A stretch of 64,000 nucleotides of DNA, from positions 66,253-130,252 of the forward strand of contig JBDRFE010000002.1 of NCBI GenBank assembly GCA_043819075.1, given 5' to 3'. Shown one piece after another: positions 2,944 through 57,890 of this stretch (position 1 is the first letter of the stretch; each line of letters begins with the position of its first letter). This DNA comes from an archaeon (lineage in GTDB: Archaea > Iainarchaeota > Iainarchaeia > Iainarchaeales > 1-14-0-10-31-34). A program made the translations under genes and the position numbers. The notes below the pieces were generated by a model. That model was not told where the DNA came from. It made no database searches and saw only the letters and a list, made by a program, of their open reading frames with translations.

Positions 2944-4677
2944 CAAGAATATACAGAATCTCTGGCCCTGTTGTAATAGCAAAAGGCCTTAATGCAAAAA
3001 TGTTTGATTTAGTCCAAGTAGGCAAAGAAGAATTAATGGGAGAAGTAATCCAGATTGACGGAGACAAAACAACAATACAGGTTTACGAAGAAACATCTGG
3101 CTTAAAGCCCGGAGAACCAGTAAAAAACACCGGCGCACCATTATCAGTTGAATTAGGCCCAGGCATGCTGACCACAATTTATGACGGAATTCAAAGGCCA
3201 TTGCCTGCATTAGTTCAAAAGATGGGCAATTTCATTCAAAGAGGAATAAGTGTTCCAGGCTTAGATAGAAAAAAGAAATGGGATTTCAAGCCAACTGCAA
3301 AAAAAAAATGATTTAGTTGAAGGCGGGGATGTTCTTGGAACAGTTCAGGAAACAAAAAACATTGTTCACAAAATTTTAGTGCCTCCTTTTATTAAAGGAA
3401 AAATAAAAGAAATTAATTCAGGAAACTTTACTGTAACAGACACAATAGCTGTATTAGACAACGGAAAAAAACTTTTTTTAATGCACAAATGGCCTGTCAA
3501 AAAACCCCGTCCATCCAAAGAAAAATTAATGCCTGAAATTCCTTTGGTTACAGGCCAAAGAATTTTAGATTCCTTGTTTCCGATTGCAAAAGGCGGTGCA
3601 GGAAGCATTCCAGGGCCGTTTGGTTCAGGAAAAACTGTTATCCAGCAACAGCTGGCAAAATGGAGTGATGCAGAAATTGTTGTTTACATCGGCTGCGGTG
3701 AAAGAGGAAACGAAATGACTGAAGTTTTAACAGAGTTTCCTGAATTATTGGATGTCAAAACCGGCAGGCCGTTAATGGAGAGAACTGTGTTAATTGCAAA
3801 TACTTCTAACATGCCTGTTGCTGCAAGAGAAGCATCAGTTTACACTGGAATGACAATAGCAGAATATTTTCGAGACCAGGGATTTGATGTAAGCTTAATG
3901 GCTGATTCAACTTCTCGTTGGGCTGAAGCAATGAGAGAAATTTCTTCTAGGTTAGAGGAAATGCCTGGAGAAGAAGGTTATCCTGCTTACCTGGCTGCAA
4001 GATTATCAGAGTTTTATGAAAGAGCAGGCAGAGTAAATGTTTTAGGCCAAAGAAAACAAACTGGTTCTGTTACTGCAATCGGAGCAGTTTCTCCTCCCGG
4101 AGGAGACTTTTCTGAGCCGGTAACACAAAACACTTTAAAAATAACAAAAGTGTTCTGGGCATTGGATGCAAAACTAGCCCAGAGAAGGCATTTTCCTTCA
4201 ATTAACTGGCTTGACTCTTACAGCTTGTATGCAACTCCATTAGAAAACTGGTTTATTGAAAATGTTGCAGAAGACTGGGTTAAAGTCAGAAGGCAGATAA
4301 TGAAAGTTTTGCAGAAAGAAGCTTCTTTACAGGAAATAGTGCAGTTAATTGGTTCTGATGCTTTGCCTGAAAAAGAAAGGCTTACAATGGAAGTTGCAAG
4401 ATTAATTCGAGAAGGCTTTTTACAGCAGAATGCATTTCATGAAGTTGACTCTTATTGTAGTATGAAAAAACAATACGGCATCTTGAAAGGAATTATTTCT
4501 TTTTCAGAGCAGGCTGAAACAGCAGTTGATGTTGGAATTCCAGTTGAAAGTATTATTGGCATGGAATCAAAGTCAAAGCTGACAAAAATTTGTTTAGTTA
4601 AAGAAGAAAATTTTGAAAAAGAAATGAATAAAATAATGAATGAAATGAAGGAGGACTTCAAAAACATTGCAAAATAA
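2934..4677 (+). CDS. atpA: A-type ATP synthase catalytic subunit A, split by a +1 frameshift inside an A10 run (3299-3308); the N-terminal part is 2934-3311, the remainder is in frame +1 from about 3310
   Basis: The N-terminal ORF ([18 protein letters not shown]...) and the downstream ORF ([15 protein letters not shown]...[11 protein letters not shown]-loop...) are contiguous A-subunit sequence; deleting one A restores a single ~580-aa frame. Confidence 0.85.
3299..3308 (+). other. A10 homopolymer at the atpA frameshift site
   Basis: gcaaaaaaaaaatga: the stop at 3309-3311 arises only in the 10-A form; 9 As read through as ...[16 protein letters not shown]. Confidence 0.7.
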
Positions 4678-4709
4678 TTTTGCAATGCTGTCATTTAAGG
4701 GGTGTAGAA

Positions 4710-7700
4710 ATGAAGGAATACAAAACAATTGAAAGAATTGCCGGACCATTAATTTTTGTGAAAAAAACTGACCCAATTGGCTACGGAGAATTAGTTAAAA
4801 TAAAATTATCTGACGGAACAATAAAAAACGGCCAGGTGTTGGATACTTCAGATGACTTAGTTGTAGCACAGGTATTTGAAGGAACATCTTCTATTGACAG
4901 GCAGTCTTCAGTGAAATTCACCGGAGACACAATTAAATTAAAGGTTTCAAAAGACTTGCTTGGAAGAGTTTTATCCGGCTTAGGTGAGCCAATTGATTCT
5001 GGGCCAGAAATTATTCCTGACAAAGAATTAGATGTTGTCGGAGCAGCAATTAATCCTTTTGCAAGAAGCTCTCCAAAAGATTTTGTCCAAACAGGATTAT
5101 CAACAATTGATGCAATGAATACTTTGGTTAAAGGCCAAAAGCTTCCGATTTTTTCCGGTTCAGGTTTGCCTCACAATGACATTGCATTACAGATTGCAAG
5201 GCAGGCAAAAGTTGAAGGAAACTTTGCTGTTGTGTTTGCTGCAATGGGAATAACAAATGAAGAAGCCCAGCAGTTCCAAAGAGACTTTGAAAGAACCGGT
5301 GCACTAGAAAGAACAATAATGTTTTTGAATTTAGCTAACGACCCAGCAATTGAAAGGCTTATTACTCCGAGAATGGCTTTAACTGCAGCAGAATATTTGG
5401 CTTACACTCACGACATGCATGTTCTTGTAATTCTCACAGACATGACAAACTATTGTGTTGAAGGAAAAACTGAAATCTTTCTTAATGACGGGGAAATAAT
5501 CAACATTAAAGACTTTGTTGAATCCCAAACAAAAGGTTCTGATGTTGACATTAGGAGTAAAAATAAGTCTCTTGTTACATGGGATGGCAAAACCCATTCA
5601 ATTAAACAAATTGCAAGAGTGCAAAAACTTCCTTCTACTCAAGAGATGATTGAAGTTATAACCCGTTCAGGAAACAAGTTAACCGCTACCCCAAATCACA
5701 GAATATTATCTGATACGATTTACGGTTTAAGAATGACCAGACTTGATCAACTCAATAAAGGAAGCAAACTATGTTCTGCATCAAAAATCGACGTACAAGA
5801 AAGTGTTCCATCAGTTATAGAACTCATTGATAATAAAACAGCAGTCTTTATGGACAAAAATGTGTTGAACAAAGCCAAGCTCAAGTTAAAGAAAAAATAT
5901 GGTTCACTAATAAAAGCATGCAAAGAATTAGAAATTAATTATTCAAGAGTTACTGATTCAGAGTCTTTCCTGCAAGCAAGTGAACTTAAAAAAATCTCAA
6001 AAGATTTATCAATTGAATTAGTGAGTAGCATTAAAGCTTTATCTAATGTTGGGGGAAAAAGATTTGAAGTTTCTTTTGTTTATCCAAATAAAGAGCTGAT
6101 GTATTGTATGGGATTAGTTGCATCAGACGGTTCAGTAATTCAAAATAAAAAGAAACATATAAGAAGAGTTGATTTTTCAAACAAAAACATTCAGTTAATA
6201 AGCAATTATACTGAAAAAATGAAAAAACTGTTTCCAAACATCAACATAAAAGTATTCAAAAATCAAAACGATGTCAGTATTGCAAGAATTGAAAGCAAAC
6301 CTTTATTTGAAATGGCAAAATCTTTTGGTTTAGCAGAAAAAGATTTCAAACCAATTTTTAAACTTCCTGAAACTCTTATTGCTTCTTTCTTAAAAGGTTA
6401 CTTTGATGGGGACGGAAGCTGTAATATAAATTCAAAACTAATTAAATACACGGCAAAAGAAGAAATAGTTGTTAAAAGACTTAGACAACTTCTAAAAAGA
6501 TTGGGTATTTCTGCCACTACAATAAAACGAAAAAGTGAATCAAGTTACGGAAATTCTTTTGTATGTGATGTTGTTATTAGAGGAAGCACTTTTGTAACAA
6601 AGTTTATTGAAAGAATAGGTTCAGATCATCCTGCTAAAATGAGATTGCTTTCTATTTTAGGGAAAAAGAAAAAAAGAAGAGCTGAATTTGAACACGCTCC
6701 AAGAATATGCGGCAACCTATTAAGATTAATAAGACAGAAATACAAGATAAAACAAACAGAACTAACCAACAGTGGAAGTTTTTCAGAGATTGAAAGAGGT
6801 TTAAAAACTGTAAGTAAAGCCGAAGTTAGAAAGTATATTGCAAAACTTGATAACGTAGTTCCATTAAATGAAGAACTATTAGTTGAATTAAAAAAGCTCA
6901 CTTCAGACAACTTTATCTTAGATCAAATAATTTCAATCAAAAAATTGCCTGCAAACAACCTCTTTGTTTTTGATGTAACGGTTCCGGAAACAGGCAAGTT
7001 TTTAGTTGACACTGGCCTGATAATTTCTAATTGTGAGGCTTTAAGGGAAATTGGTGCTGCAAGAGAAGAAGTTCCTGGAAGAAGAGGTTATCCTGGTTAT
7101 ATGTACACTGACTTGGCTTCAATTTACGAAAGAGCCGGCTTGATTAAAGGAAAAAAGGGTTCAGTAACACAGATTCCAATCCTGACAATGCCAGGCGACG
7201 ATATAACTCACCCAATACCTGATTTAACTGGTTATATTACTGAAGGTCAAATCGTTTTAGGAAGAGAACTGCATATGAAAGGAGTTTATCCTCCGATTGA
7301 TGTTCTTCCATGCCTTTCACGTTTAATGAATGCAGGAATAGGCAAAAAAAACACTAGAGAAGACCATAAAGCTGTTTCAAACCAGTTGTATGCAGCTTAT
7401 GCTGAAGGCCGTTCTTTAAGGGGATTAGTTGCAATTGTAGGAGAAGAAGCCTTAAGCGAAAGAGACAGAAAGTTTTTGAAGTTTGCAGAAGAATTTGAGC
7501 AAAAATTTATTTCACAAGACAAATACGAGAACAGGACAATTTTTGAGTCACTGAATTTAGGCTGGGATTTATTGTCTGCTTTGCCTGCAACAGAATTAAC
7601 AAGAATTGATGATGAGTTAATCGCAAAATACTTGGATAAAAACAAGAGACCAGCGGAAAAAACGCCAGAGGCAAAACTTGACACTTCAAAAGAAATTTCT

Positions 7701-8479: not shown

Positions 8480-9313
8480 TTAAATTAATCCTTTCCCTGT
8501 GTTGATTGCCAAGATTCTGGTTTCTTTATTTAACTTAAGCTTAGGCAAAGCTGCAAAAACAGTGGCGGCTGAAGGTTCGCAGTTAATTAACCCTTCAACA
8601 CTTTTCATTGCAGACAAAATTTCTTCGTCTTTTACTTCAATATATTTGTTTCCTTTTTTTAAAGCATCATTAATTTCCTTGGAGTACGGTCTCCAACAAG
8701 TTATCAGTTTGTCTGCAACGCTTTTACTGGAATTCACTCCGACACACACAATCTTAACTTTCATTTTAAGTTTTTTCAGAGCTGAATGGATTCCTAGAAA
8801 CAGTTCTCCGCTTCCCAGAGGGCAAATAATGCAGTCAAGTTTTTTCAGATACTCTTTTTTTAACTCAAAAATAATTTGTTCATTTGCTTTGTGCCATCTG
8901 TTTGTGGCATCCAAAATCTTTTCTTCATTATTTTCTCTTGCAAGTAGCGTGATTTCTTCTGGTTTAAACATTTTTTCAGCCAAATCTGCTTCAATTAATT
9001 TACCGCAGTATTTTTTGAGTTTTTCTTTAATGGAATTTCTGCATTTCTTGTCAACGATTGAAACCACTTTTATGCCTGTTCCTTCCGAGAATTTAGCCAA
9101 AGAATACCCTGAATTTCCGGCAGTAATTAATGCAAGTTTATCTATGTTATTTTCTTTGGCATTTTTGATTATCAGTTCGCTTCTTCTGTCCTTGAATGTC
9201 CCGAAAGGATTTTTGCTTTCATCTTTAATCCACAGATTAGGCAAATTAAATTTTTTGTTTAAGTAAGAAATTTTCAGCAAAGGAGTGTGCCCAACTTCAA
9301 TCATTGTTTTCAC
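8480..9313 (-). CDS. PLP-dependent enzyme, fold type II (threonine synthase/cysteine synthase-like PALP family)
   Basis: HTPLL...KDESKNPFGTFKDRRS matches the TPL...K.E..NPTGSFKDR lysine/PLP motif; ITAGNSGYS glycine loop. Confidence 0.55.
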   Translation of the reverse strand: MKTMIEVGHTPLLKISYLNKKFNLPNLWIKDESKNPFGTFKDRRSELIIKNAKENNIDKLALITAGNSGYSLAKFSEGTGIKVVSIVDKKCRNSIKEKLKKYCGKLIEADLAEKMFKPEEITLLARENNEEKILDATNRWHKANEQIIFELKKEYLKKLDCIICPLGSGELFLGIHSALKKLKMKVKIVCVGVNSSKSVADKLITCWRPYSKEINDALKKGNKYIEVKDEEILSAMKSVEGLINCEPSAATVFAALPKLKLNKETRILAINTGKGLI

Positions 9314-30891: not shown

Positions 30892-31323
30892 TTATTTTTT
30901 AAATGATTTTTCTGCCTGGGTTATCATCTGGCCTAATGCATTAAGGTTTGCATAGCTTGCTCTCTGCACTTTTTCCAGTTGCTCAAGCTTTTCAATTGTT
31001 TCTTTTTCTCTTTGCTCTATTTCTTCTATTGCCGCAGAGGTTTCTTTTTCTATTATCACGCCTCCGGCCCTGCTTGACTTTACTTTAGTGCTTTTGTCAA
31101 CTAATACATCCAGATAAACTCCTGCACCCAGTGAAACCATTGCTTTTTCGCCTTTCTTTGTTTTTTTTATTGCATTAAGGCTTTCTTTTGCAAACAATAT
31201 TTCTTCCAGAATAGCCTGGACTGAATTAATGCCTCTGTTTGTTTCTTCTAATCTCATTTTTTCCTGTGCAAAAGCAGTCATTATCTGGTTTCCGCTTAAT
31301 ACAACTGATTTTTCTTCTGCCAT
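30892..31323 (-). CDS. pfdA: Prefoldin alpha subunit
   Basis: Coiled-coil / beta-hairpin (VSLGAGVYLDVLV) / coiled-coil architecture; conserved position between rplLX and ftsY. Confidence 0.7.
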   Translation of the reverse strand: MAEEKSVVLSGNQIMTAFAQEKMRLEETNRGINSVQAILEEILFAKESLNAIKKTKKGEKAMVSLGAGVYLDVLVDKSTKVKSSRAGGVIIEKETSAAIEEIEQREKETIEKLEQLEKVQRASYANLNALGQMITQAEKSFKK

Positions 31324-31514
31324 TATTTCACCTTCACTTCTTTTACTTCAATTATTTCAATTAAATTTCTTTTAAGCTTGTTTTTTGAGCCGAACAGGCT
31401 GAAAACCTGTTCTATTGCAGTGTTTTCATTCAATGAATTAACTGTTTTAGAAAAGTTTTTTTCCATTTTCTTGCTTTTTATTTTTCCCTGTACTTCAAAT
31501 AATTTTTTTTCCAT
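31323..31514 (-). CDS. 50S ribosomal protein LX (L18Ae/L20A family)
   Basis: [13 protein letters not shown]...[32 protein letters not shown] resembles the LX family; conserved LX-pfdA-ftsY linkage. Confidence 0.55.
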
Positions 31515-31519
31515 GTTTA
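31493..31519. repeat. 27-bp direct repeat, copy 1 (cttcaaataattttttttccatgttta); identical copy at 31673-31699
   Basis: Exact 27/27 identity, 180 bp apart, flanking element A; includes the rplLX ATG and first 7 codons. Confidence 0.85.
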
Positions 31520-31672
31520 TTCCCCCTCAACCGTCACGCTCGGTTGGTGTGCGTGCACTATCTTCGCTTTTGCTCGATAGAGCTTGCACGGCTTTACACC
31601 GTGCTGTGCTTTTACAGAAGGACTGAGCGCAAGCGAATGTCGTTCTCTGGTGCCAGCTGACAGTGGCAGCTG
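31520..31672 (-). repeat. GC-rich hairpin element (copy A) inserted between a perfect 27-bp direct repeat that duplicates the rplLX start region
   Basis: 153 nt at ~58% GC in a ~30% GC genome; contains GCACGG-TGTAAAG-CCGTGC and CCAACCG-AGCGTGA-CGGTTGG hairpins shared with copies B, C and D. Confidence 0.6.
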
Positions 31673-31699
31673 CTTCAAATAATTTTTTTTCCATGTTTA
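31673..31699. repeat. 27-bp direct repeat, copy 2
   Basis: See copy 1. Confidence 0.85.
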
Positions 31700-32359
31700 A
31701 TCTCTCCTTAAACCTTCATCTATCATGAGCATTTCAGCGTTTGAAGTGTATTCTCCTATTAATACGCCCTTGGAGTTTGCCAGTATGTCGTTTGCCACAA
31801 AAGGGTCACCGTAATTTGCTGTTGAAGGAGCTCCTTTAACTTTAAATATTGATTCGATTTCCTTTAATTCTTTTTCTTTTATTTCAGGATGCACTATAAA
31901 CCCTTTATTGCTTGCAACAATGCATGATCCAACAACTTCACTGTTGGCTATGTTCATTTGCTTTAAATTTACTCCAAGAAAACGCTTTATTTCGCTGAAA
32001 GTTTTTTTTTCAATTAAAGGGCTTGCAATTCCGCCAAAATCGTTCACTGCAACCAGATTCCCTAAAGCAGTTAATCCTTTTACCACTTTTATTTTTATTC
32101 CTTTTTCCTGAAGGAATTCAATTTCTTTTTCCTCTGTTATTTCCGGAACAATAAATCCTTTGCTGTTTCCTTTGACTAAACAGCCAATCAATGAACTGTT
32201 TGCAATGCTTGCCTGCACTACTTCTATTTCAAAAAATTCCTCTATTTTTTCTATTTCTTTTGCGTCAATCTGTACAGGAAACAATCCGATTTTTTCTGTA
32301 ACGCTTGCAAAAATTCCTATGAAAGGGCTCCCTCTCATGGATTTTTTCTGTATATTCAT
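31697..32359 (-). CDS. eif6: Translation initiation factor 6 (aIF6/eIF6)
   Basis: Five-fold pseudo-repeat with recurring IG...N..G..VP units (GSPFIGIFASV, SSLIGCLV, LTALGNLVAVND, SEVVGSCIVASNKG, DPFVANDILANSKG). Confidence 0.85.
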   Translation of the reverse strand: MNIQKKSMRGSPFIGIFASVTEKIGLFPVQIDAKEIEKIEEFFEIEVVQASIANSSLIGCLVKGNSKGFIVPEITEEKEIEFLQEKGIKIKVVKGLTALGNLVAVNDFGGIASPLIEKKTFSEIKRFLGVNLKQMNIANSEVVGSCIVASNKGFIVHPEIKEKELKEIESIFKVKGAPSTANYGDPFVANDILANSKGVLIGEYTSNAEMLMIDEGLRRD

Positions 32360-33979: not shown

Positions 33980-34471
33980 TTATTCCTTGCGTTTTTGGGC
34001 TGTTTTTTCAAGCAGTTTTTTTTCAACTGTTTCTGGCACGAACTCTTTTACCCTGCCTTTCAGTGAAACAATTTCTTTTATAAGAGTGGAGTTAATGTAA
34101 AAGTATTTTGGCTCTGTCATTAAAAAAACTGTTTCAATGTTTTCATTCAAGCCTTTATTGACTGTTGACTGCTGGAATTCGTATTCAAAATCGCTTATTG
34201 CCCTTAACCCTCTGATAACAAACCTGTAATTTTTTTGTTTCATGTACTCTGCAAGCAATCCATGCAATACTTCAATTTTAATGTTCTTTTTTTTGCTGAA
34301 CAGCTCTTCAAGCATTTGCTTTCTTTCTTCTAAAGAAAACCAGTTTTTTTTTCTCTTGTTTTCTGCAACCAATACAATTACTTCATCAAACAGTTTTTCT
34401 GCCCTAGAAATTATGTCCATGTGCCCGAATGTAACTGGGTCAAAGCTTCCTGCATAAATCCCTGTTTTCAT
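33980..34471 (-). CDS. coaD: Phosphopantetheine adenylyltransferase, bacterial CoaD type
   Basis: GIYAGSFDPVTFGHMDIISRA closely matches bacterial CoaD ([20 protein letters not shown]). Confidence 0.85.
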   Translation of the reverse strand: MKTGIYAGSFDPVTFGHMDIISRAEKLFDEVIVLVAENKRKKNWFSLEERKQMLEELFSKKKNIKIEVLHGLLAEYMKQKNYRFVIRGLRAISDFEYEFQQSTVNKGLNENIETVFLMTEPKYFYINSTLIKEIVSLKGRVKEFVPETVEKKLLEKTAQKRKE

Positions 34472-35355
34472 TTAATTTCGCCTTTAATTTTATTGCTTAA
34501 ATCATTAATTTTTTCCTGCAATTCCTTTAAAGTTCCATTGTTTTCAACCAAAAAATCGGCTTTCTTTTTTTTCCTTCCTGCAGGCAGCTGGTTTTTTAAT
34601 CTCTTTAAAACCTCTTCTTTTTGCATTCCAAGCTTTTCTTTTCTTTCAATCATTTTATCTTTTTTTGAATAAATCACTAAGATCTTGTCGCATAAATCCT
34701 GCATTCCTGATTCAAACAATAAAGGAATTTCTATTGCAACAAGTTTTTCTCCTCTGGCTTCTTCTTCAAGTTTTTTTCTCACTAAAGGATGAATTAACTC
34801 ATTTAATTCAGCTAATTTTTTCCTGTTATTAAAAACAATTTTTGCGATTTTCTGGAATTCAATTCCATGTTTTGAAACAGCTTCTATTCCAATTATTTCT
34901 TTTAACTCTTCTTTTACTTTCAGCATTTCTTTTTTGGCTATTGTATCTGCATTCAATGCTTTGAAGCCGTTTGATTCAAATTCTTTTAATACAGTGCTTT
35001 TTCCTGTTCCAATGCTTCCAGTAATGCCTAACACAATGCATTCCTTTTTTTTCTCCGGAAAAACTTTTTTTATTTTCCCGCAGTTTTTGCATTTAACCAG
35101 CAAAACCTTGTTTTTTATTCTCACTTCTTTGTCTTTGCTTTCAAGCAATAAAGAAAAACATTTTTTGCAGTAAAGTTTTTTCAGTTCTTTTGGAATTTTT
35201 ACTTTATTCCTCATCCCGATTTTTTTCATTAACTTTAAGTAATCCAAACTTCTTTCAGGATGTTTTTCCCATTCAATTAAAGCAAGGTCCATTAGCCTGT
35301 ACATTCTCTGCAATGCAATGTCTTCAATGAACTTCCTGTTATTTTTTTGCTTCAT
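34468..35355 (-). CDS. Fusion protein: N-terminal RNase P subunit Rpp21/Rpr2 zinc-ribbon domain plus C-terminal dephospho-CoA kinase (bacterial CoaE type)
   Basis: Residues ~1-105: KVKIPKELKKLYCKKCFSLLL...VKCKNCGKI aligns with archaeal Rpp21 ([23 protein letters not shown]...CLECGH); residues ~110-295: VLGITGSIGTGKSTV P-loop and CoaE-like lid; a single uninterrupted 295-aa frame. Confidence 0.7.
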   Translation of the reverse strand: MKQKNNRKFIEDIALQRMYRLMDLALIEWEKHPERSLDYLKLMKKIGMRNKVKIPKELKKLYCKKCFSLLLESKDKEVRIKNKVLLVKCKNCGKIKKVFPEKKKECIVLGITGSIGTGKSTVLKEFESNGFKALNADTIAKKEMLKVKEELKEIIGIEAVSKHGIEFQKIAKIVFNNRKKLAELNELIHPLVRKKLEEEARGEKLVAIEIPLLFESGMQDLCDKILVIYSKKDKMIERKEKLGMQKEEVLKRLKNQLPAGRKKKKADFLVENNGTLKELQEKINDLSNKIKGEIK

Positions 35356-35444
35356 AAAAGAATTAGTGGTTTAATTACTATAAATTAATAACCTATGCAA
35401 AGCATAGGTTGACATTTTTCGGCACTCACGCTCGAAAGCGTGAA

Positions 35445-35515: not shown

Positions 35516-35650
35516 AAACGTTTCGCCGTTTGAGCACGAAGCACTATCTTCGCTTTTGGCTCGATAGAGCTTGCACGGCTTTATGCCGTGCTTCGTACCG
35601 CACAGCCGAAACTGTGCCGAGCTTGCTTCGCCAATTGTGCAGACTAATTA
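35516..35650 (-). repeat. GC-rich hairpin element (copy B), immediately 5' of tRNA-Gly(TCC)
   Basis: ~50 nt nearly identical to copy A (AGCACGGCATAAAGCCGTGCAAGCTCTATCGAGCCAAAAGCGAAGATAGTGC); ~58% GC. Confidence 0.6.
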
Positions 35651-35779
35651 CTGTAATAAAAAGTTATTAAACTTTATTTTTTTTGTTTAACACAGAAATA
35701 CTGTTTTAGTCAGCACAAATTAATAACCAATTACAAAGTAATTGGTTGATGTTTTTCGTTTCTCGCGGGCGAAACCGCG

Positions 35780-35925
35780 ATGCGAAGCACATACGGCTTT
35801 ATGCCGCAGCCGTCACGTTCGGCTGGTGTACGCGTACCACGTAAAGTGGTGCTAGCACGGCTTTATGCCGTGCGCCGTCACACTCGCACGGAAGCGAGTC
35901 GGTGCTCGCGCTCGAAGCGCGACGA
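35780..35925 (-). repeat. GC-rich hairpin element (copy C), immediately 3' of tRNA-Gly(GCC)
   Basis: ~95% identical over ~150 nt to the element 3' of tRNA-Arg (copy D), apart from a 56-nt indel. Confidence 0.65.
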
Positions 35926-36145
35926 TGCGACTGCCGGGAATCGAACCCGAGTCCGAAGCTTACTGCACAACTTTTTTAAAAGTTGTATCAAAATGTACGG
36001 CATAAAGCCGTACTGTACTAAAACAATAAGTTTTTGCAAAGCAAAAACCGTTTTTGTTAAACCTTTTTTTGAAAAAGGTTTTTTTGATCAAACTTTTGGA
36101 AAAGTTTGTTGGCAAGCTCCAATTCTACCACTGAACCACAGTCGC
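35926..36145 (-). tRNA. tRNA-Gly (anticodon GCC) interrupted by a ~149-nt intron in the anticodon loop (canonical 37/38 region; intron about 35961-36109)
   Basis: 5' exon GCGACTGTGGTTCAGTGGTAGAATTGGAGCTTGCCA, 3' exon AGCTTCGGACTCGGGTTCGATTCCCGGCAGTCGCA: perfect 7-bp acceptor pairing, GTTC/GAAT D-stem, GGAGC/GCTTC anticodon stem; the intron is AT-rich with palindromic hairpins including GTACGGCATAAAGCCGTAC. Confidence 0.8.
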
Positions 36146-36805: not shown

Positions 36806-36927
36806 CCGCCTTTTCCAAAAGGCAGGTTGCAACTTAATTCCAAAAAGGAATTAAGTGCACACTAAAACCAAAAGTTTTAGTGGTGCCAAAACGCACGGCG
36901 TAAACCCGTGCTGGCACTGTTTTTTAT

Positions 36928-57639: not shown

Positions 57640-57890
57640 TTCGCGCTTTCGAGCGCGAGCACCGACTCGCTTCCGTGCGAGTGTGACGGCGCACGGCTTT
57701 CAGCCGAGCATGCTTCGCTTTCGCGGTTCCGTCCGCGAGCAACGGAGCACGGCATAAAGCCGTGCTAGCACCACTTTACGTGGTGCGCGTACACCAGCCG
57801 AACGTGACGGCTGCGGCATAAAGCCGTATGTGCTTCGCTTTCGTGATTTCGCTTGCGGGTGTAGAGCGATATATCAAGTTATTTCGTTTC
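57640..57890 (+). repeat. GC-rich hairpin element (copy D) immediately 3' of tRNA-Arg
   Basis: ~250 nt at ~58% GC; homologous to copy C (3' of tRNA-Gly-GCC) with a 56-nt indel flanked by a GCACGGC direct repeat; hairpins GCGC-TTTCGA-GCGC, GCACGGC-ATAAA-GCCGTGC, CAGCCG-AACGTGA-CGGCTG. Confidence 0.65.

Follow-up and report, generated by a model that had tools for sequence, protein, structure and literature searches.

GC-rich hairpin repeats are well known in mitochondria, whose genomes are compact and AT-rich, and in bacteria as the REP/BIME elements. The latter are intergenic, imperfect GC-rich palindromes arranged in mosaic clusters and mobilised by RAYT transposases; they are often intercistronic in operons, where they act as mRNA-stabilising hairpins. 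To our knowledge, REP insertion gives no long target duplications, and Cas1-type integration (CRISPR spacers, casposons) is the only well-known prokaryotic chemistry that duplicates approximately 14-37 bp. The tRNA-flanking palindromes of Neurospora are likewise GC-rich sequences in an AT-rich genome and reportedly contain double restriction-site (PstI) palindromes. The yeast mitochondrial GC clusters include GC42 of Saccharomyces and the 'byps' of Magnusiomyces (PMC4478555, PMC8811140). For their mobilisation, routes through DNA, through RNA and through recombination have all been proposed (PMC4478555, PMC8811140). In the literature searched, no description of GC-rich hairpin repeats in DPANN archaea was found. 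The locus considered here lies in a 64-kb stretch of DNA from such an archaeon, referred to below in its entirety as the window.

The repeat pair and the insert between eIF6 and LX

The genes of translation initiation factor eIF6 and ribosomal protein LX are adjacent in the window, and the junction between them contains the following features:

31323-31514, minus strand: ribosomal protein LX (L18Ae) gene, 63 aa, PF01775, continuing from the proximal repeat copy
31493-31519, minus strand: proximal 27-bp repeat, with the duplicated TAA-AC, the functional LX start and the first codons
31520-31672, minus strand: GC-rich hairpin array (element E), 153 nt, inserted between the repeats
31527-31694, minus strand: decoy ORF of 55 codons, opened by the distal ATG
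31673-31699, minus strand: distal 27-bp repeat, with the real eIF6 stop (TAA), AC as spacer and a decoy start for LX
31697-32359, minus strand: translation initiation factor eIF6 gene, 220 aa

An exact search gives two perfect copies of the 27-mer CTTCAAATAATTTTTTTTCCATGTTTA, at 31493-31519 and 31673-31699, with 0 mismatches and 180 bp apart, as the preliminary description had reported for a repeat pair around a GC-rich element of 153 nt. There is no third copy in the 64-kb window, even when 3 mismatches are allowed, and by chance no recurrence of the 27-mer is expected (100 dinucleotide shuffles). The 153 nt enclosed by the repeats have a GC content of about 50-55%, compared with 34.5% for the window. 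On the minus (gene) strand the repeat reads TAA AC ATG GAA AAA AAA TTA TTT GAA G and runs from the stop codon of eIF6 over two spacer nucleotides to the ATG of LX with six further codons and one nucleotide. The earlier statements that the repeat carries the LX start with its first codons, and that the proximal copy runs into the LX ORF of 63 aa, are correct. The distal copy opens a frame through the element as claimed, but the length of this frame is 55 codons (31527-31694) and not 57, and its stop codon (TGA) is located 14 nt ahead of the LX ATG. The decoy ORF is not conserved: in the sister species it comprises only 18 codons, and the frame fused to LX there is another one. The possibility of a protein-coding insert was rejected: there are two open frames in the window and neither is kept in the sister species. 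In annotation, the insert accounts for a spurious ORF call of 55 aa and for a "fused LX" call of 101 aa in public data.

Base for base, the same repeat-insert-repeat arrangement occurs in NCBI GCA_043824355.1, in a MEGAHIT contig (k127) of ERZ928008 and across two overlapping Logan contigs of SRR26275509, and the insert is fixed and identical in two strains. The window itself seems to belong to yet another assembly, 99% related. Both junctions are thus the same in independent assemblies, a second close strain among them, and the duplication that had called for a check against assembly error is real.

In nine related DPANN (Iainarchaeota-like) genomes (L007-L010, L014, L016 and L024-L026) the site is empty: the motif is present once, and the eIF6 stop and the LX ATG are 0-5 nt apart. 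The distal 27-mer corresponds to the sole copy at the position seen in these empty-site relatives. Judged by this comparison, the 153-nt block is a true insertion relative to the ancestral state. The preliminary description had proposed an insertion with target duplication and had pointed to the eIF6-LX junction of related genomes, where an empty site would carry one copy of the motif; both the proposal and the prediction are borne out by the nine genomes. A metagenome scan with an eIF6 profile yielded at least one locus among the matches listed. In all relatives LX starts 0-5 nt past the eIF6 stop or overlaps it, and because of this spacing LX is, as far as gene order tells, an internal and translationally coupled cistron of the operon. 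The "native LX promoter" that had been assumed at first finds no support in these relatives.

The insert is absent only from more distant species. The sister species, represented by two independent samples, has an orthologous insert at the same junction with an identical junction sequence, in which the ends are conserved, the middle is remodelled and the flanking repeats are diverged. It shares with the window species 83% identity in eIF6 and 72% in PfdA, for which the empty-site genomes show 49-63%. Between the window and the sister species, coding DNA is 77-84% identical and third codon positions 68-76%, the 3' terminal stretch of approximately 39 nt in the insert is about 92% identical, and the 5' terminal 26 nt (31647-31672) are 100% identical. 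The complete conservation of these 26 nt suggests a specific function. Because the sister species shares the insert with diverged repeats, the insertion is, by the same comparison, old and not fresh. Such a duplicated arrangement with divergent copies in relatives had been named in advance as evidence against an insertion; it refutes the recency of the event and leaves the insertion itself in place. That the two 27-mers are perfectly identical is a poor sign of youth, because four species share the 22-mer ATGGAAAAAAAATTATTTGAAG without a single difference in their DNA. For a full explanation, repeats that are perfect here and diverged in the sister species would need constraint on the decoy copy, gene conversion or a low mutability of A/T-rich sequence.

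A hairpin family at tRNA genes

Within the insert, the following modules were distinguished:

31520-31527, minus strand: Shine-Dalgarno-like G-run AGGGGGAA, 7 nt upstream of the functional LX ATG
31528-31546, minus strand: 3' terminal hairpin H3/HR, CAACCG-AGCGUGA-CGGUUG
31558-31580, minus strand: hairpin H2' (CUAUCG...CGAAGAUAG), inside a 52-nt stretch 94% identical to the tRNA-Gly(TCC) leader copy
31586-31604, minus strand: hairpin H1, GCACGGU-GUAAA-GCCGUGC (gene-sense RNA)
31647-31672, minus strand: 5' terminal module CAGCTGCCACTGTCAGCTGGCACCAG, an inverted hairpin of the HR type (CAGCTG-N7-CAGCTG)

The LX insert is bounded at its two ends by hairpins of the HR type in inverted orientation, and 12 of their 19 nt are alike. 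The 5' terminal module matches the reverse complement of the module abutting tRNA-Val (L029) in 25 of 26 nt. The homologue of H3/HR in tRNA leaders ends exactly at tRNA position +1, and H2' is homologous to the tRNA-Gly(TCC) leader hairpin of the sister species. The innermost pair of H1 is a G.U wobble on the gene-sense strand, which would be a C.A mismatch if the opposite strand were the one that folds. The G-run AGGGGGAA is probably the diverged part of a duplicated eIF6 3' end, considering that the 16 nt upstream of the proximal 27-mer are at an edit distance of 3-5 from eIF6 3' ends, with a null median of approximately 8; convergence on a Shine-Dalgarno sequence, instead of duplication, could also produce this likeness. 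An exceptional thermodynamic stability of the insert was not found, its global folding energy being ordinary on both strands (z ~ -1).

Alignment with the flanks of tRNA genes has shown the insert to be an ectopic member of a modular GC-rich hairpin family that is specific to the lineage. A unit of this family consists of H1-TA-H2-spacer-HR, at times with an HL hairpin in front, and the usual place of the family in these AT-rich DPANN archaea is in the 5' leaders and 3' trailers of tRNA genes, where the HR hairpin directly abuts the tRNA 5' end and ends exactly there. The hairpins contain approximately 55-60% GC, the host genomes 27-34%. BLAST and covariance-model matches of the family were located in tRNA flanks only, in a search space of 64 kb of genome and a few kb from relatives. 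The copies in the window are:

35517-35650, minus strand: family copy G1, a GC-rich array in the 5' leader of tRNA-Gly(TCC)
35748-35925, minus strand: family copy T1, the 3' trailer array of the intron-containing tRNA-Gly(GCC), with two H0-type hairpins flanking it
57640-57870, plus strand: family copy T2, the 3' trailer array of tRNA-Arg(TCG)

The insert is 94% identical over 52 nt to positions 35541-35592, in the tRNA-Gly(TCC) leader copy, and this match confirms the kinship with tRNA-flanking GC islands that had been noticed at first sight; identity to 35804-35873 and 57714-57816 is 66-68%. The L015 insert and the reverse complement of the L029 tRNA-Val leader are 88% identical over 67 nt (E = 1e-15), and G1 is 93% identical to the same leader despite the different tRNA downstream. 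In alignment A7 all units are collinear and end at tRNA +1, which corresponds to the two termini of the insert. T2 is 88-93% identical to T1 and has one additional module of 56 nt. The orthologous L029 trailer of tRNA-Gly(GCC) lacks the T1 array. The family has spread in this lineage, in agreement with the earlier suggestion that it is or was mobile. Both empty and filled sites exist, and the swapping of modules is seen between copies and between species. Flanking repeats are found elsewhere as well, with a length of approximately 27-30 nt (diverged) around T1, 12-13 nt around the extra T2 module and approximately 10-15 nt at an LX-pfdA insert of L007. An H1-like hairpin is located within the intron of tRNA-Gly(GCC).

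The stems are conserved as structures. In the orthologous and paralogous copies 94% of the cells are paired and 8 of the 20 pairs show compensatory changes, whereas none of 500 shuffles reaches the score and only 15-44% of the cells are paired in slid controls; an independent set of alignments gives 95.7% paired and compensatory changes in 4 of 20 pairs. Across species the modules are more conserved in sequence than coding DNA is, and this conservation together with the strong covariation argues for a real role at the level of RNA or of single-stranded DNA. A conserved TATA-like box lies upstream of the arrays, which are therefore probably transcribed.

Among the Rfam models, three tRNAs alone reach the gathering threshold in the window, and at E <= 10 nothing credible appears in the insert or in the tRNA flanks. 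C/D-box and H/ACA readings were rejected by eye, as there is no RUGAUGA/CUGA pair and no internal pocket. A pseudo-peptide profile run against 5.8 billion proteins revealed no more family copies by way of spurious ORF calls, and a GC-rich hairpin at L009 6181-6200 was discarded as a chance match inside the SRP54 coding sequence.

Origin of the insert and alternative explanations

We consider it likely that the insert, an ectopic array of the tRNA-flanking family, was acquired once and long ago by recombination or template switching, and that its hairpins have since been retained. A single event placed the array into the 0-5-nt junction between eIF6 and LX and, on grounds of parsimony, is dated to the last ancestor shared by the window species and its sister. 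The target was duplicated over at least 27 bp, and probably over about 43 bp, with the part comprising the eIF6 3' end and the Shine-Dalgarno sequence now diverged. Because of this duplication, eIF6 kept its stop codon; LX kept a Shine-Dalgarno-like G-run, the start codon and an intact N-terminus, and the upstream copy turned into a decoy start. The array most probably arrived not through a classical transposase but by copy-and-paste, through illegitimate recombination or replication template-switching between hairpin arrays where a junction was staggered or had slipped. The arrays are visibly remodelled by these same processes, namely by unequal recombination, by gene conversion and by the shuffling of modules. 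In its present state the array is probably co-transcribed in the operon mRNA, where it would form a stable hairpin stack between two formerly coupled cistrons, with LX translated from its own Shine-Dalgarno-like site. Selection on structure would retain the hairpins, whether these form a repeat that is selfish or neutral or a general module of RNA processing or stability. A tightly coupled operon junction can in this way outlive an insertion, since stop codon, Shine-Dalgarno-like site and start codon are all supplied anew by the duplication.

An exapted role as a cis-acting RNA useful to the operon is compatible with this account of the origin, and we regard it as possible though not probable. 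The array could serve as an endonucleolytic processing site, as a stability element, or as a translational uncoupler that sets the ratio of LX/PfdA/FtsY to eIF6, and the same modules would serve pre-tRNA maturation at their usual place. On the one hand, the insert was kept through the split of the species with its ends more conserved than synonymous sites, its hairpins are maintained by compensatory changes and its modules are conserved beyond coding DNA, the G.U pair of H1 is possible only on the gene-sense strand, and a Shine-Dalgarno-like G-run has been preserved at a suitable spacing from the LX ATG. On the other hand, nine relatives live without the insert, its middle is freely remodelled, the decoy ORF is not conserved, the folding energy is unexceptional (z ~ -1) and there is no match to a known RNA family.

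A more far-reaching proposal, which we hold to be unlikely, is an undescribed and still functional DPANN system in which GC-rich modules of four hairpins, conserved in sequence and placed against tRNA 5' and 3' ends, would be recognised by a dedicated nuclease or integrase, or by RNase P together with a reverse transcriptase, and would be copied and pasted with unusually long duplications of approximately 27 bp. If this were true, the eIF6-LX insert would be an off-target integration by that tRNA-end hairpin-module system, and the system would be the first equivalent of mitochondrial GC clusters in archaea, and one whose integration chemistry can be defined.

Two mechanisms of mobility appear rather improbable to us. 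According to the first, the insert is a non-autonomous, MITE-like transposon, active or recent, and the target-site duplication was made by transposase cuts staggered by approximately 27 bp. The direct repeat of target sequence around the insert, the inverted HR-type hairpins at both termini with 12 of 19 nt alike, the second array T1, likewise flanked by a duplicated hairpin of approximately 27-30 nt, and the expansion of the family in the lineage all agree with such an element. However, the insert is old and common to the sister species, where the repeats have diverged; the copies G1, T1, T2 and the tRNA-Val leaders differ in terminal modules and in length; and instead of a fixed short duplication there are repeats of 27 (possibly approximately 43), approximately 27-30, 12-13 and approximately 10-15 nt. 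We know of no transposase whose duplications reach 27 bp or more, and no nearly identical full-length copy of the insert is present in the 64-kb window. The fresh transposase insertion considered in the preliminary description is not sustained, given the age of the insert and the lack of common termini and of a fixed short duplication.

The second mechanism is RNA-mediated: a pre-tRNA 5' leader released by RNase P would have been reverse-transcribed and integrated at a staggered nick in a TPRT-like manner, possibly after the palindromic H1-TA-H2 core had primed synthesis by snapping back, and with a long, variable target duplication. Spread through RNA has been proposed for yeast mitochondrial GC clusters (PMC4478555). 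The termini of the insert match leader ends at tRNA +1, which is the RNase P site, the arrays, with the TATA-like box upstream, are probably transcribed, the duplication is long, and two HR ends placed head-to-head around a palindromic core are the expected product of self-primed second-strand synthesis. The two arms, however, are only about 50-63% alike, too little for snap-back to have happened recently, an A-tail and other marks of retroposition are missing, and the same architecture is explained by recombination between inverted arrays at the DNA level.

Site-specific integration of the att type, in which the 27-mers would be the attL and attR cores of a remnant, is very unlikely. Perfect direct repeats around foreign-looking DNA and family copies near tRNA genes, the usual targets of integration, speak for this reading, but the repeat is plain target sequence, present once in each of the nine empty sites, and an integrating element would already have needed the eIF6 stop and LX start. 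In addition, the insert of 153 nt holds no gene or element body, the tRNA-linked copies leave the tRNA 3' ends unduplicated, and no similar sequence was found in phage or viral collections, BLAST giving no match in phages. Three IMG/VR matches to the H1 19-mer were put down to chance, as they are located in unrelated GC-rich DNA.

An mRNA intron of 180 nt (the insert and one repeat), excised by the archaeal splicing endonuclease at a BHB motif, is more doubtful still. An H1-like hairpin does occur inside the tRNA-Gly(GCC) intron, and owing to the direct repeats any in-register excision of 180 nt restores the ancestral sequence; yet a strict BHB scan, which likewise failed to detect the relaxed motif in the control tRNA intron and is therefore a weak test, gave no cleavage sites 180 nt apart. 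In-register excision needs a self-complementary 4-mer (CATG or AATT) with an inner helix, which is absent, and splicing is unneeded, since a Shine-Dalgarno-like site and an ATG are present at the proximal copy itself. A false tandem duplication by assembly can be dismissed: the Logan assembly is broken 30 nt into the insert, perhaps owing to another copy of the HR module in the genome, but different assemblers, one of them with k = 127 and hence longer than the repeat of 27, yield identical junctions, and a diverged orthologue of the sister species is present in two further samples.

Comparison with known hairpin repeats

The closest analogues of the family are mitochondrial GC clusters, the tRNA-flanking palindromes of Neurospora and bacterial REP/BIME. 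Cas1-type integration resembles it superficially, in that the H0 hairpins around T1 look like a repeat-insert-repeat arrangement, but inserts of 104-153 nt are not spacer-sized, neither cas genes nor a CRISPR array were noticed, and the segment duplicated at LX is not palindromic. In comparison with REP/BIME, the family here is low in copy number within the window and is tied to tRNA genes, and by eye neither GTAG nor CGTC, the REP/BIME tag, is evident at the hairpin ends. The Neurospora palindromes resemble the CAGCTG-N7-CAGCTG hairpin found at tRNA-Val (L029 and L030) and at the 5' end of the insert; they belong to a different domain of hosts and have no sequence relationship to this family.

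The resemblance to mitochondrial GC clusters, one of analogy and not of homology, extends over several characteristics. Both are short GC-rich hairpin repeats in a very AT-rich, compact genome, with a structurally constrained hairpin and with 'merger and shuffling' of units, and both are sporadic among relatives and often transcribed (PMC4478555, PMC8811140). Like the insert at LX, the mitochondrial clusters land in or beside genes without destroying them, and their direct-repeat flanks are taken as target duplications (PMC4478555, PMC8811140). The flanks of the mitochondrial clusters are 2-3 nt long (AG, ACT, TAG), whereas those of the family here range from 12 to at least 27 nt, and units of 30-50 nt stand against multi-hairpin arrays of approximately 95-230 nt. 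Moreover, the host is an archaeon and not an organelle, there is a strong tie to tRNA 5' and 3' ends, and the module sequences are conserved across species. The case is useful in two further respects. First, the family has a clear "home" in tRNA leaders and trailers, with one hairpin placed against the RNase P site; second, datable ectopic insertions with long target duplications limit the mechanisms by which such hairpin repeats could spread.

Insertion at the eIF6-LX junction

The 27-mer CTTCAAATAATTTTTTTTCCATGTTTA occurs exactly twice in the window with 0 mismatches, confirming the perfect direct repeat of the preliminary description; no third copy is present in the 64 kb with up to 3 mismatches allowed, and none would be expected by chance in shuffled sequence. 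All genes of the region lie on the minus strand (in the order L39e, L31e, eIF6, insert, LX, prefoldin alpha, FtsY), where the repeat reads TAA-AC-ATG-GAA-AAA-AAA-TTA-TTT-GAA-G and comprises the stop codon of eIF6, two spacer nucleotides and 7⅓ codons from the start of LX.

31697-32359, minus strand: eIF6
31673-31699: distal copy of the 27-mer
31520-31672: insert of 153 nt, ~50-55% GC (window, 34.5%)
31493-31519: proximal copy, running into the real LX ORF
31323-31514, minus strand: LX, 63 aa, PF01775

Assembly artefact is ruled out by identical junctions in three independent assemblies and by a second close strain. Exact eIF6 and LX proteins were recovered on NCBI GCA_043824355.1, an ERZ928008 MEGAHIT k127 contig and SRR26275509 Logan contigs, and the 461 nt spanning both junctions are base-identical across all three. 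The window's Rpr2-CoaE protein is 100% identical on the 146.6-kb NCBI contig and 99% identical in GCA_043824355.1, and the window thus stands for a further, second close strain that shares the insert arrangement. The two Logan contigs (end of L003, start of L006) break in the insert, where they share exactly 30 nt, CACGCACACCAACCGAGCGTGACGGTTGAG. This stretch is the spacer plus the hairpin module HR, and a graph branch here would fit a second identical copy of the module, at another place in the genome or in a strain that co-occurs.

The relatives compared are DPANN archaea (labelled Candidatus Iainarchaeum, Micrarchaeota and Diapherotrites in their records). An empty site is found in nine related genomes (L007-L010, L014, L016 with six more contigs of the same species, L024, L025 and L026), with eIF6 70-77% identical where the full gene is available. 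In each, the motif of the 27-mer is present in a single copy and the distance from eIF6 stop to LX ATG is 0-5 nt, or the two overlap (TAATG). The 153-nt block is therefore an insertion that duplicated its target, as had been proposed from the sequence. This single-motif junction also indicates that the ancestral eIF6 and LX genes were translationally coupled, the ancestral LX Shine-Dalgarno (SD) sequence sitting within the last eIF6 codons (AGGAGAGAT / AGAGGGGAT).

Age of the insertion and extent of the duplication

A related insert is present at the same junction in L015 and in the independent JGI contig L027 of the same species. On the eIF6 side the sequence is eIF6…GGGGAA-TAA-AAAA-ATGGAAAAATTATTTGAAG up to the boundary; the insert follows as CAGCTGCCACTGTCAGCTGGCACCAG-[H1]-TA-[H2]-ACGCACACCAACCAAGCATGACGGTTGAAGGGGGAA, where H1 and H2 are hairpin modules, and then the LX side as TGAAA-ATGGAAGAAAAATTATTTGAAG-TACAGGG. 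This species is the closest relative of the window among the genomes compared (eIF6 83% and PfdA 72% identical; PfdA 49-63% in all empty-site genomes), and parsimony favours one insertion in their common ancestor.

The insertion is old. The flanking repeats of the sister species differ from each other by a 3-nt indel and several substitutions, and its insert measures ~104 nt against 153 nt. A recent event, implicit in the preliminary description, is thus not borne out; the same description held that diverged repeats in a relative would speak against an insertion altogether, and they do speak against recency, whereas the insertion itself stands on the nine empty sites. That the two 27-mers of the window match perfectly says little for a young insertion: the 22-mer ATGGAAAAAAAATTATTTGAAG is identical DNA in four species. 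Between window and sister, coding DNA is 77-84% identical (third codon positions, 68-76%), the first 26 nt of the insert 100% and its last ~39 nt ~92%; the ends are thus under constraint or have undergone homogenisation, and the middle was remodelled.

The original duplication was probably ~43 bp, its eIF6-3'/SD part having since diverged, because the 16 nt that precede the proximal 27-mer, GACGGTTGAGGGGGAA, are similar to eIF6 3' ends, e.g. GAAGGTTTGAGGGGAGAA in L009. Edit distances are 3-5 (null median ~8), with P ~0.01 for the window's own eIF6 end and ~1e-4 to 3e-3 for L009 and L025. This likeness may also reflect convergence on an SD sequence.

AGGGGGAA stands 7 nt before the functional LX ATG in window and sister species alike. 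The ORF opened by the distal ATG, previously given as 57 codons, was counted here as 55, and has 18 in the sister species; relay translation is therefore not conserved. Public gene calls have been misled by the insert in both species: the ENA contig carries a 55-aa ORF annotation that spans it (L002 3666-3833), and the sister LX is called as a 101-aa protein starting inside it (L015 575-880; L027 4472-4777), the database "LX" P0002 of 101 aa being a call that runs through the related insert.

The tRNA-flanking hairpin family

In the 64-kb window, perfect GC-rich hairpins (stem 6 bp or longer) occur almost exclusively in the insert and at tRNA loci: in the flanks of tRNA-Gly(TCC), in the intron and flanks of tRNA-Gly(GCC), upstream of tRNA-Val and in the tRNA-Arg trailer. 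A covariance model of H1-H2-H3 matches only the insert and these places in the window. Decisive for the identity of the insert were the orthologous tRNA loci of L029 and L030, the two most distant genomes compared, where the gap from the DnaG stop to tRNA-Val is a four-hairpin array, [GCACAG-TTYCGG-CTGTGC]-RGTACGAG-[H1: GCACGAC-ATAAA-GTCGTGC]-TA-[H2]-spacer-[HR: CAGCTG-N7-CAGCTG], with tRNA-Val position +1 being the last G of HR. Against the reverse complement of the L029 leader, the sister LX insert matches at 88% over 67 nt (E = 1e-15) and the 5' 26 nt of the window insert at 25/26. The 3' half is collinear with the sister tRNA-Gly(TCC) leader, …CCATCGAGCGCAAGCGAAGATGG-TGCACGCGTGT-AAACTG-AGCGTGA-CAGTTT followed by the tRNA.

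Alignment A7 combined the leaders of tRNA-Val and of tRNA-Gly(TCC), one trailer unit and the right (gene sense) and left (antisense) halves of the insert. All units are collinear and share their final column, tRNA +1 for the leaders and the outer terminus for the insert; the LX insert is therefore a pseudo-palindrome, with core hairpins and on each side a spacer plus tRNA-abutting hairpin in inverted orientation. These collinear modules and the cross-species matches place the insert in the tRNA-flank family, as initially suspected.

The insert hairpins are conserved. In a set of two orthologous tRNA-Val leaders, the sister LX insert and two trailers, 94% of cells are paired and 8 of 20 pairs carry compensatory double changes, a covariation reached by 0 of 500 shuffles; sliding the partners by 1-3 columns lowers pairing to 15-44%. 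In a second set, to which the window insert and G1 (the array in the tRNA-Gly(TCC) leader) belong, 95.7% of cells are paired and 4/20 pairs are compensatory. H1 of the window insert is GCACGGU-GUAAA-GCCGUGC, with an innermost G.U wobble on the gene-sense strand only, a hint that the structure under selection is that of the RNA. A conserved TATA-like box, TTTATTAAATTTTT, precedes tRNA-Gly(TCC) by 75-135 nt in four genomes, and its position suggests that the arrays lie inside the transcribed leader.

Several features of the tRNA loci were observed alongside.

35920-36145, minus strand: tRNA-Gly(GCC) with intron, missed by ARAGORN and Rfam
~36110-36145, minus strand: its 5' half (GCGACTGTGGTTCAGTGGTAGAATTGGAGCTTGCCAA)
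~35925-35962, minus strand: its 3' half
35995-36013: one H1-like GC hairpin in its intron
35426-35443, 35906-35922, 57641-57658; L028 181-205: H0 hairpins
35392-35420, 35727-35757; L028 205-245; L029 ~4440-4470, ~4690-4735: end modules
36807-36925 (tRNA-Val leader), 35962-36110 (tRNA-Gly(GCC) intron); L007 insert 3846-3862: AT-rich hairpins
34468-35355, minus strand: Rpr2-CoaE, 295 aa

The tRNA-Gly(GCC) intron (~150 nt) is AT-rich and hairpin-filled, and orthologues with a similar intron occur in L029 (~4262-4416) and L030 (~3521-3677). H0 directly follows the discriminator base in three of four window tRNA genes (Arg, Gly-GCC and Gly-TCC, not Val) and Gly(TCC) in L028, in the variants YCRCGC-TTTCGA-GCGYGA and TCGCGG-TTTCGY-CCGCGA, then GNNMCGA. 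A hairpin also adjoins most tRNA 5' ends examined (tRNA-Gly(TCC) and tRNA-Val, several genomes), and the pre-tRNAs are thus bracketed by hairpins stacking on the acceptor stem. The tRNA transcription units end in a conserved module, CGAAAAAYRTCAACC-[hairpin]-GGTTATTAATTT, whose inner stem varies (AATTAC/GTAATT vs TATGC/GCATA) while its ends and TTTG loop are kept; it looks like a terminator or processing hairpin. The second, AT-rich hairpin family has 6-10-bp stems and YCAAAA-type loops (e.g. GCCTTTTCCAAAAGGC, CTTAATTCCAAAAAGGAATTAAG, CAAACTTTTCCAAAAGTTTG). Just downstream of the tRNA-Gly genes, a single ORF joins Rpr2 (PF04032), the protein subunit of RNase P, to the dephospho-CoA kinase CoaE (PF01121), a fusion kept across the whole clade (P0017-P0032).

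Mobility, mechanism and known systems

In the window the tRNA-Gly(GCC) trailer contains an array of ~140-165 nt, T1; the orthologous site of L029 lacks one. T1 lies between two H0-type hairpins (~27-30 nt, ~70% alike), where other trailers have one; the pair makes T1 the second array with a long duplication at its flanks. The array behind tRNA-Arg, T2, shares 88-93% identity with T1 and has an extra 56-nt module flanked by RACGGMGCACGGC. G1 precedes tRNA-Gly(TCC) in the window, yet is 93% identical to the L029 tRNA-Val leader. In the window insert the G1 hairpin has taken the place of H2, and the 94% identity of the two copies over 52 nt suggests gene conversion. Modules have thus been shuffled between arrays of the family, and the presence of T1 and its absence from L029 shows that the family has spread in this lineage, in line with the earlier suggestion that it is or was mobile.

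L007 carries a different insert of ~85 nt (3845-3925, corresponding to L029 ~9081-9169) between LX and pfdA, which overlap (TAATG) in other species. Its parts are the AT-rich hairpin ACTTTTTCAAAAAAAGT, the TATA-like stretch TTTATTAAAT and a GC hairpin, TCGCGA-GCGAAA-TCGCGA, with the SD/stop segment AAGGAAGTGA duplicated on both sides; this is the operon's second insertion to have duplicated its target.

Neither the transposase-type nor the att-type integration proposed earlier is demonstrable. We infer that the event was not classical transposition, as the family copies have no shared termini, the flanking repeats are long and of variable length, and there is no element body. The favoured route would be copy-and-paste at the DNA level, with hairpin arrays as the partners in template switching or illegitimate recombination; selection would keep only products that re-create stop codon, SD and start codon. 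An RNA-mediated route is attractive, as the termini of the insert coincide with RNase P sites, but no enzyme supports it. The array today is most likely a co-transcribed structured spacer, with LX translation presumably starting at its own SD-like G-run.

The main interest of the case is the tRNA-flank hairpin family to which the insert led. It matches no Rfam family. For the insert, a strict scan that also missed the control tRNA intron found no BHB motif in register; an intron of the BHB type is unlikely. An earlier description was not found in the literature searched, which is not proof of absence. Among the closest analogues are the GC clusters of yeast mitochondria, for which hairpin constraint, unit merger and shuffling, putative target duplications and an unresolved mechanism are described (PMC4478555; PMC8811140), all four being common to the archaeal family. 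Bacterial REP/BIME elements also belong here, as do the GC-rich palindromes that Neurospora mitochondria have beside their tRNA genes (Yin et al. 1981, cited by PMC8811140). The archaeal family differs from these analogues in its host, its multi-hairpin arrays, its precise abutment on tRNA ends, the conservation of module sequences across species and its long target duplications.
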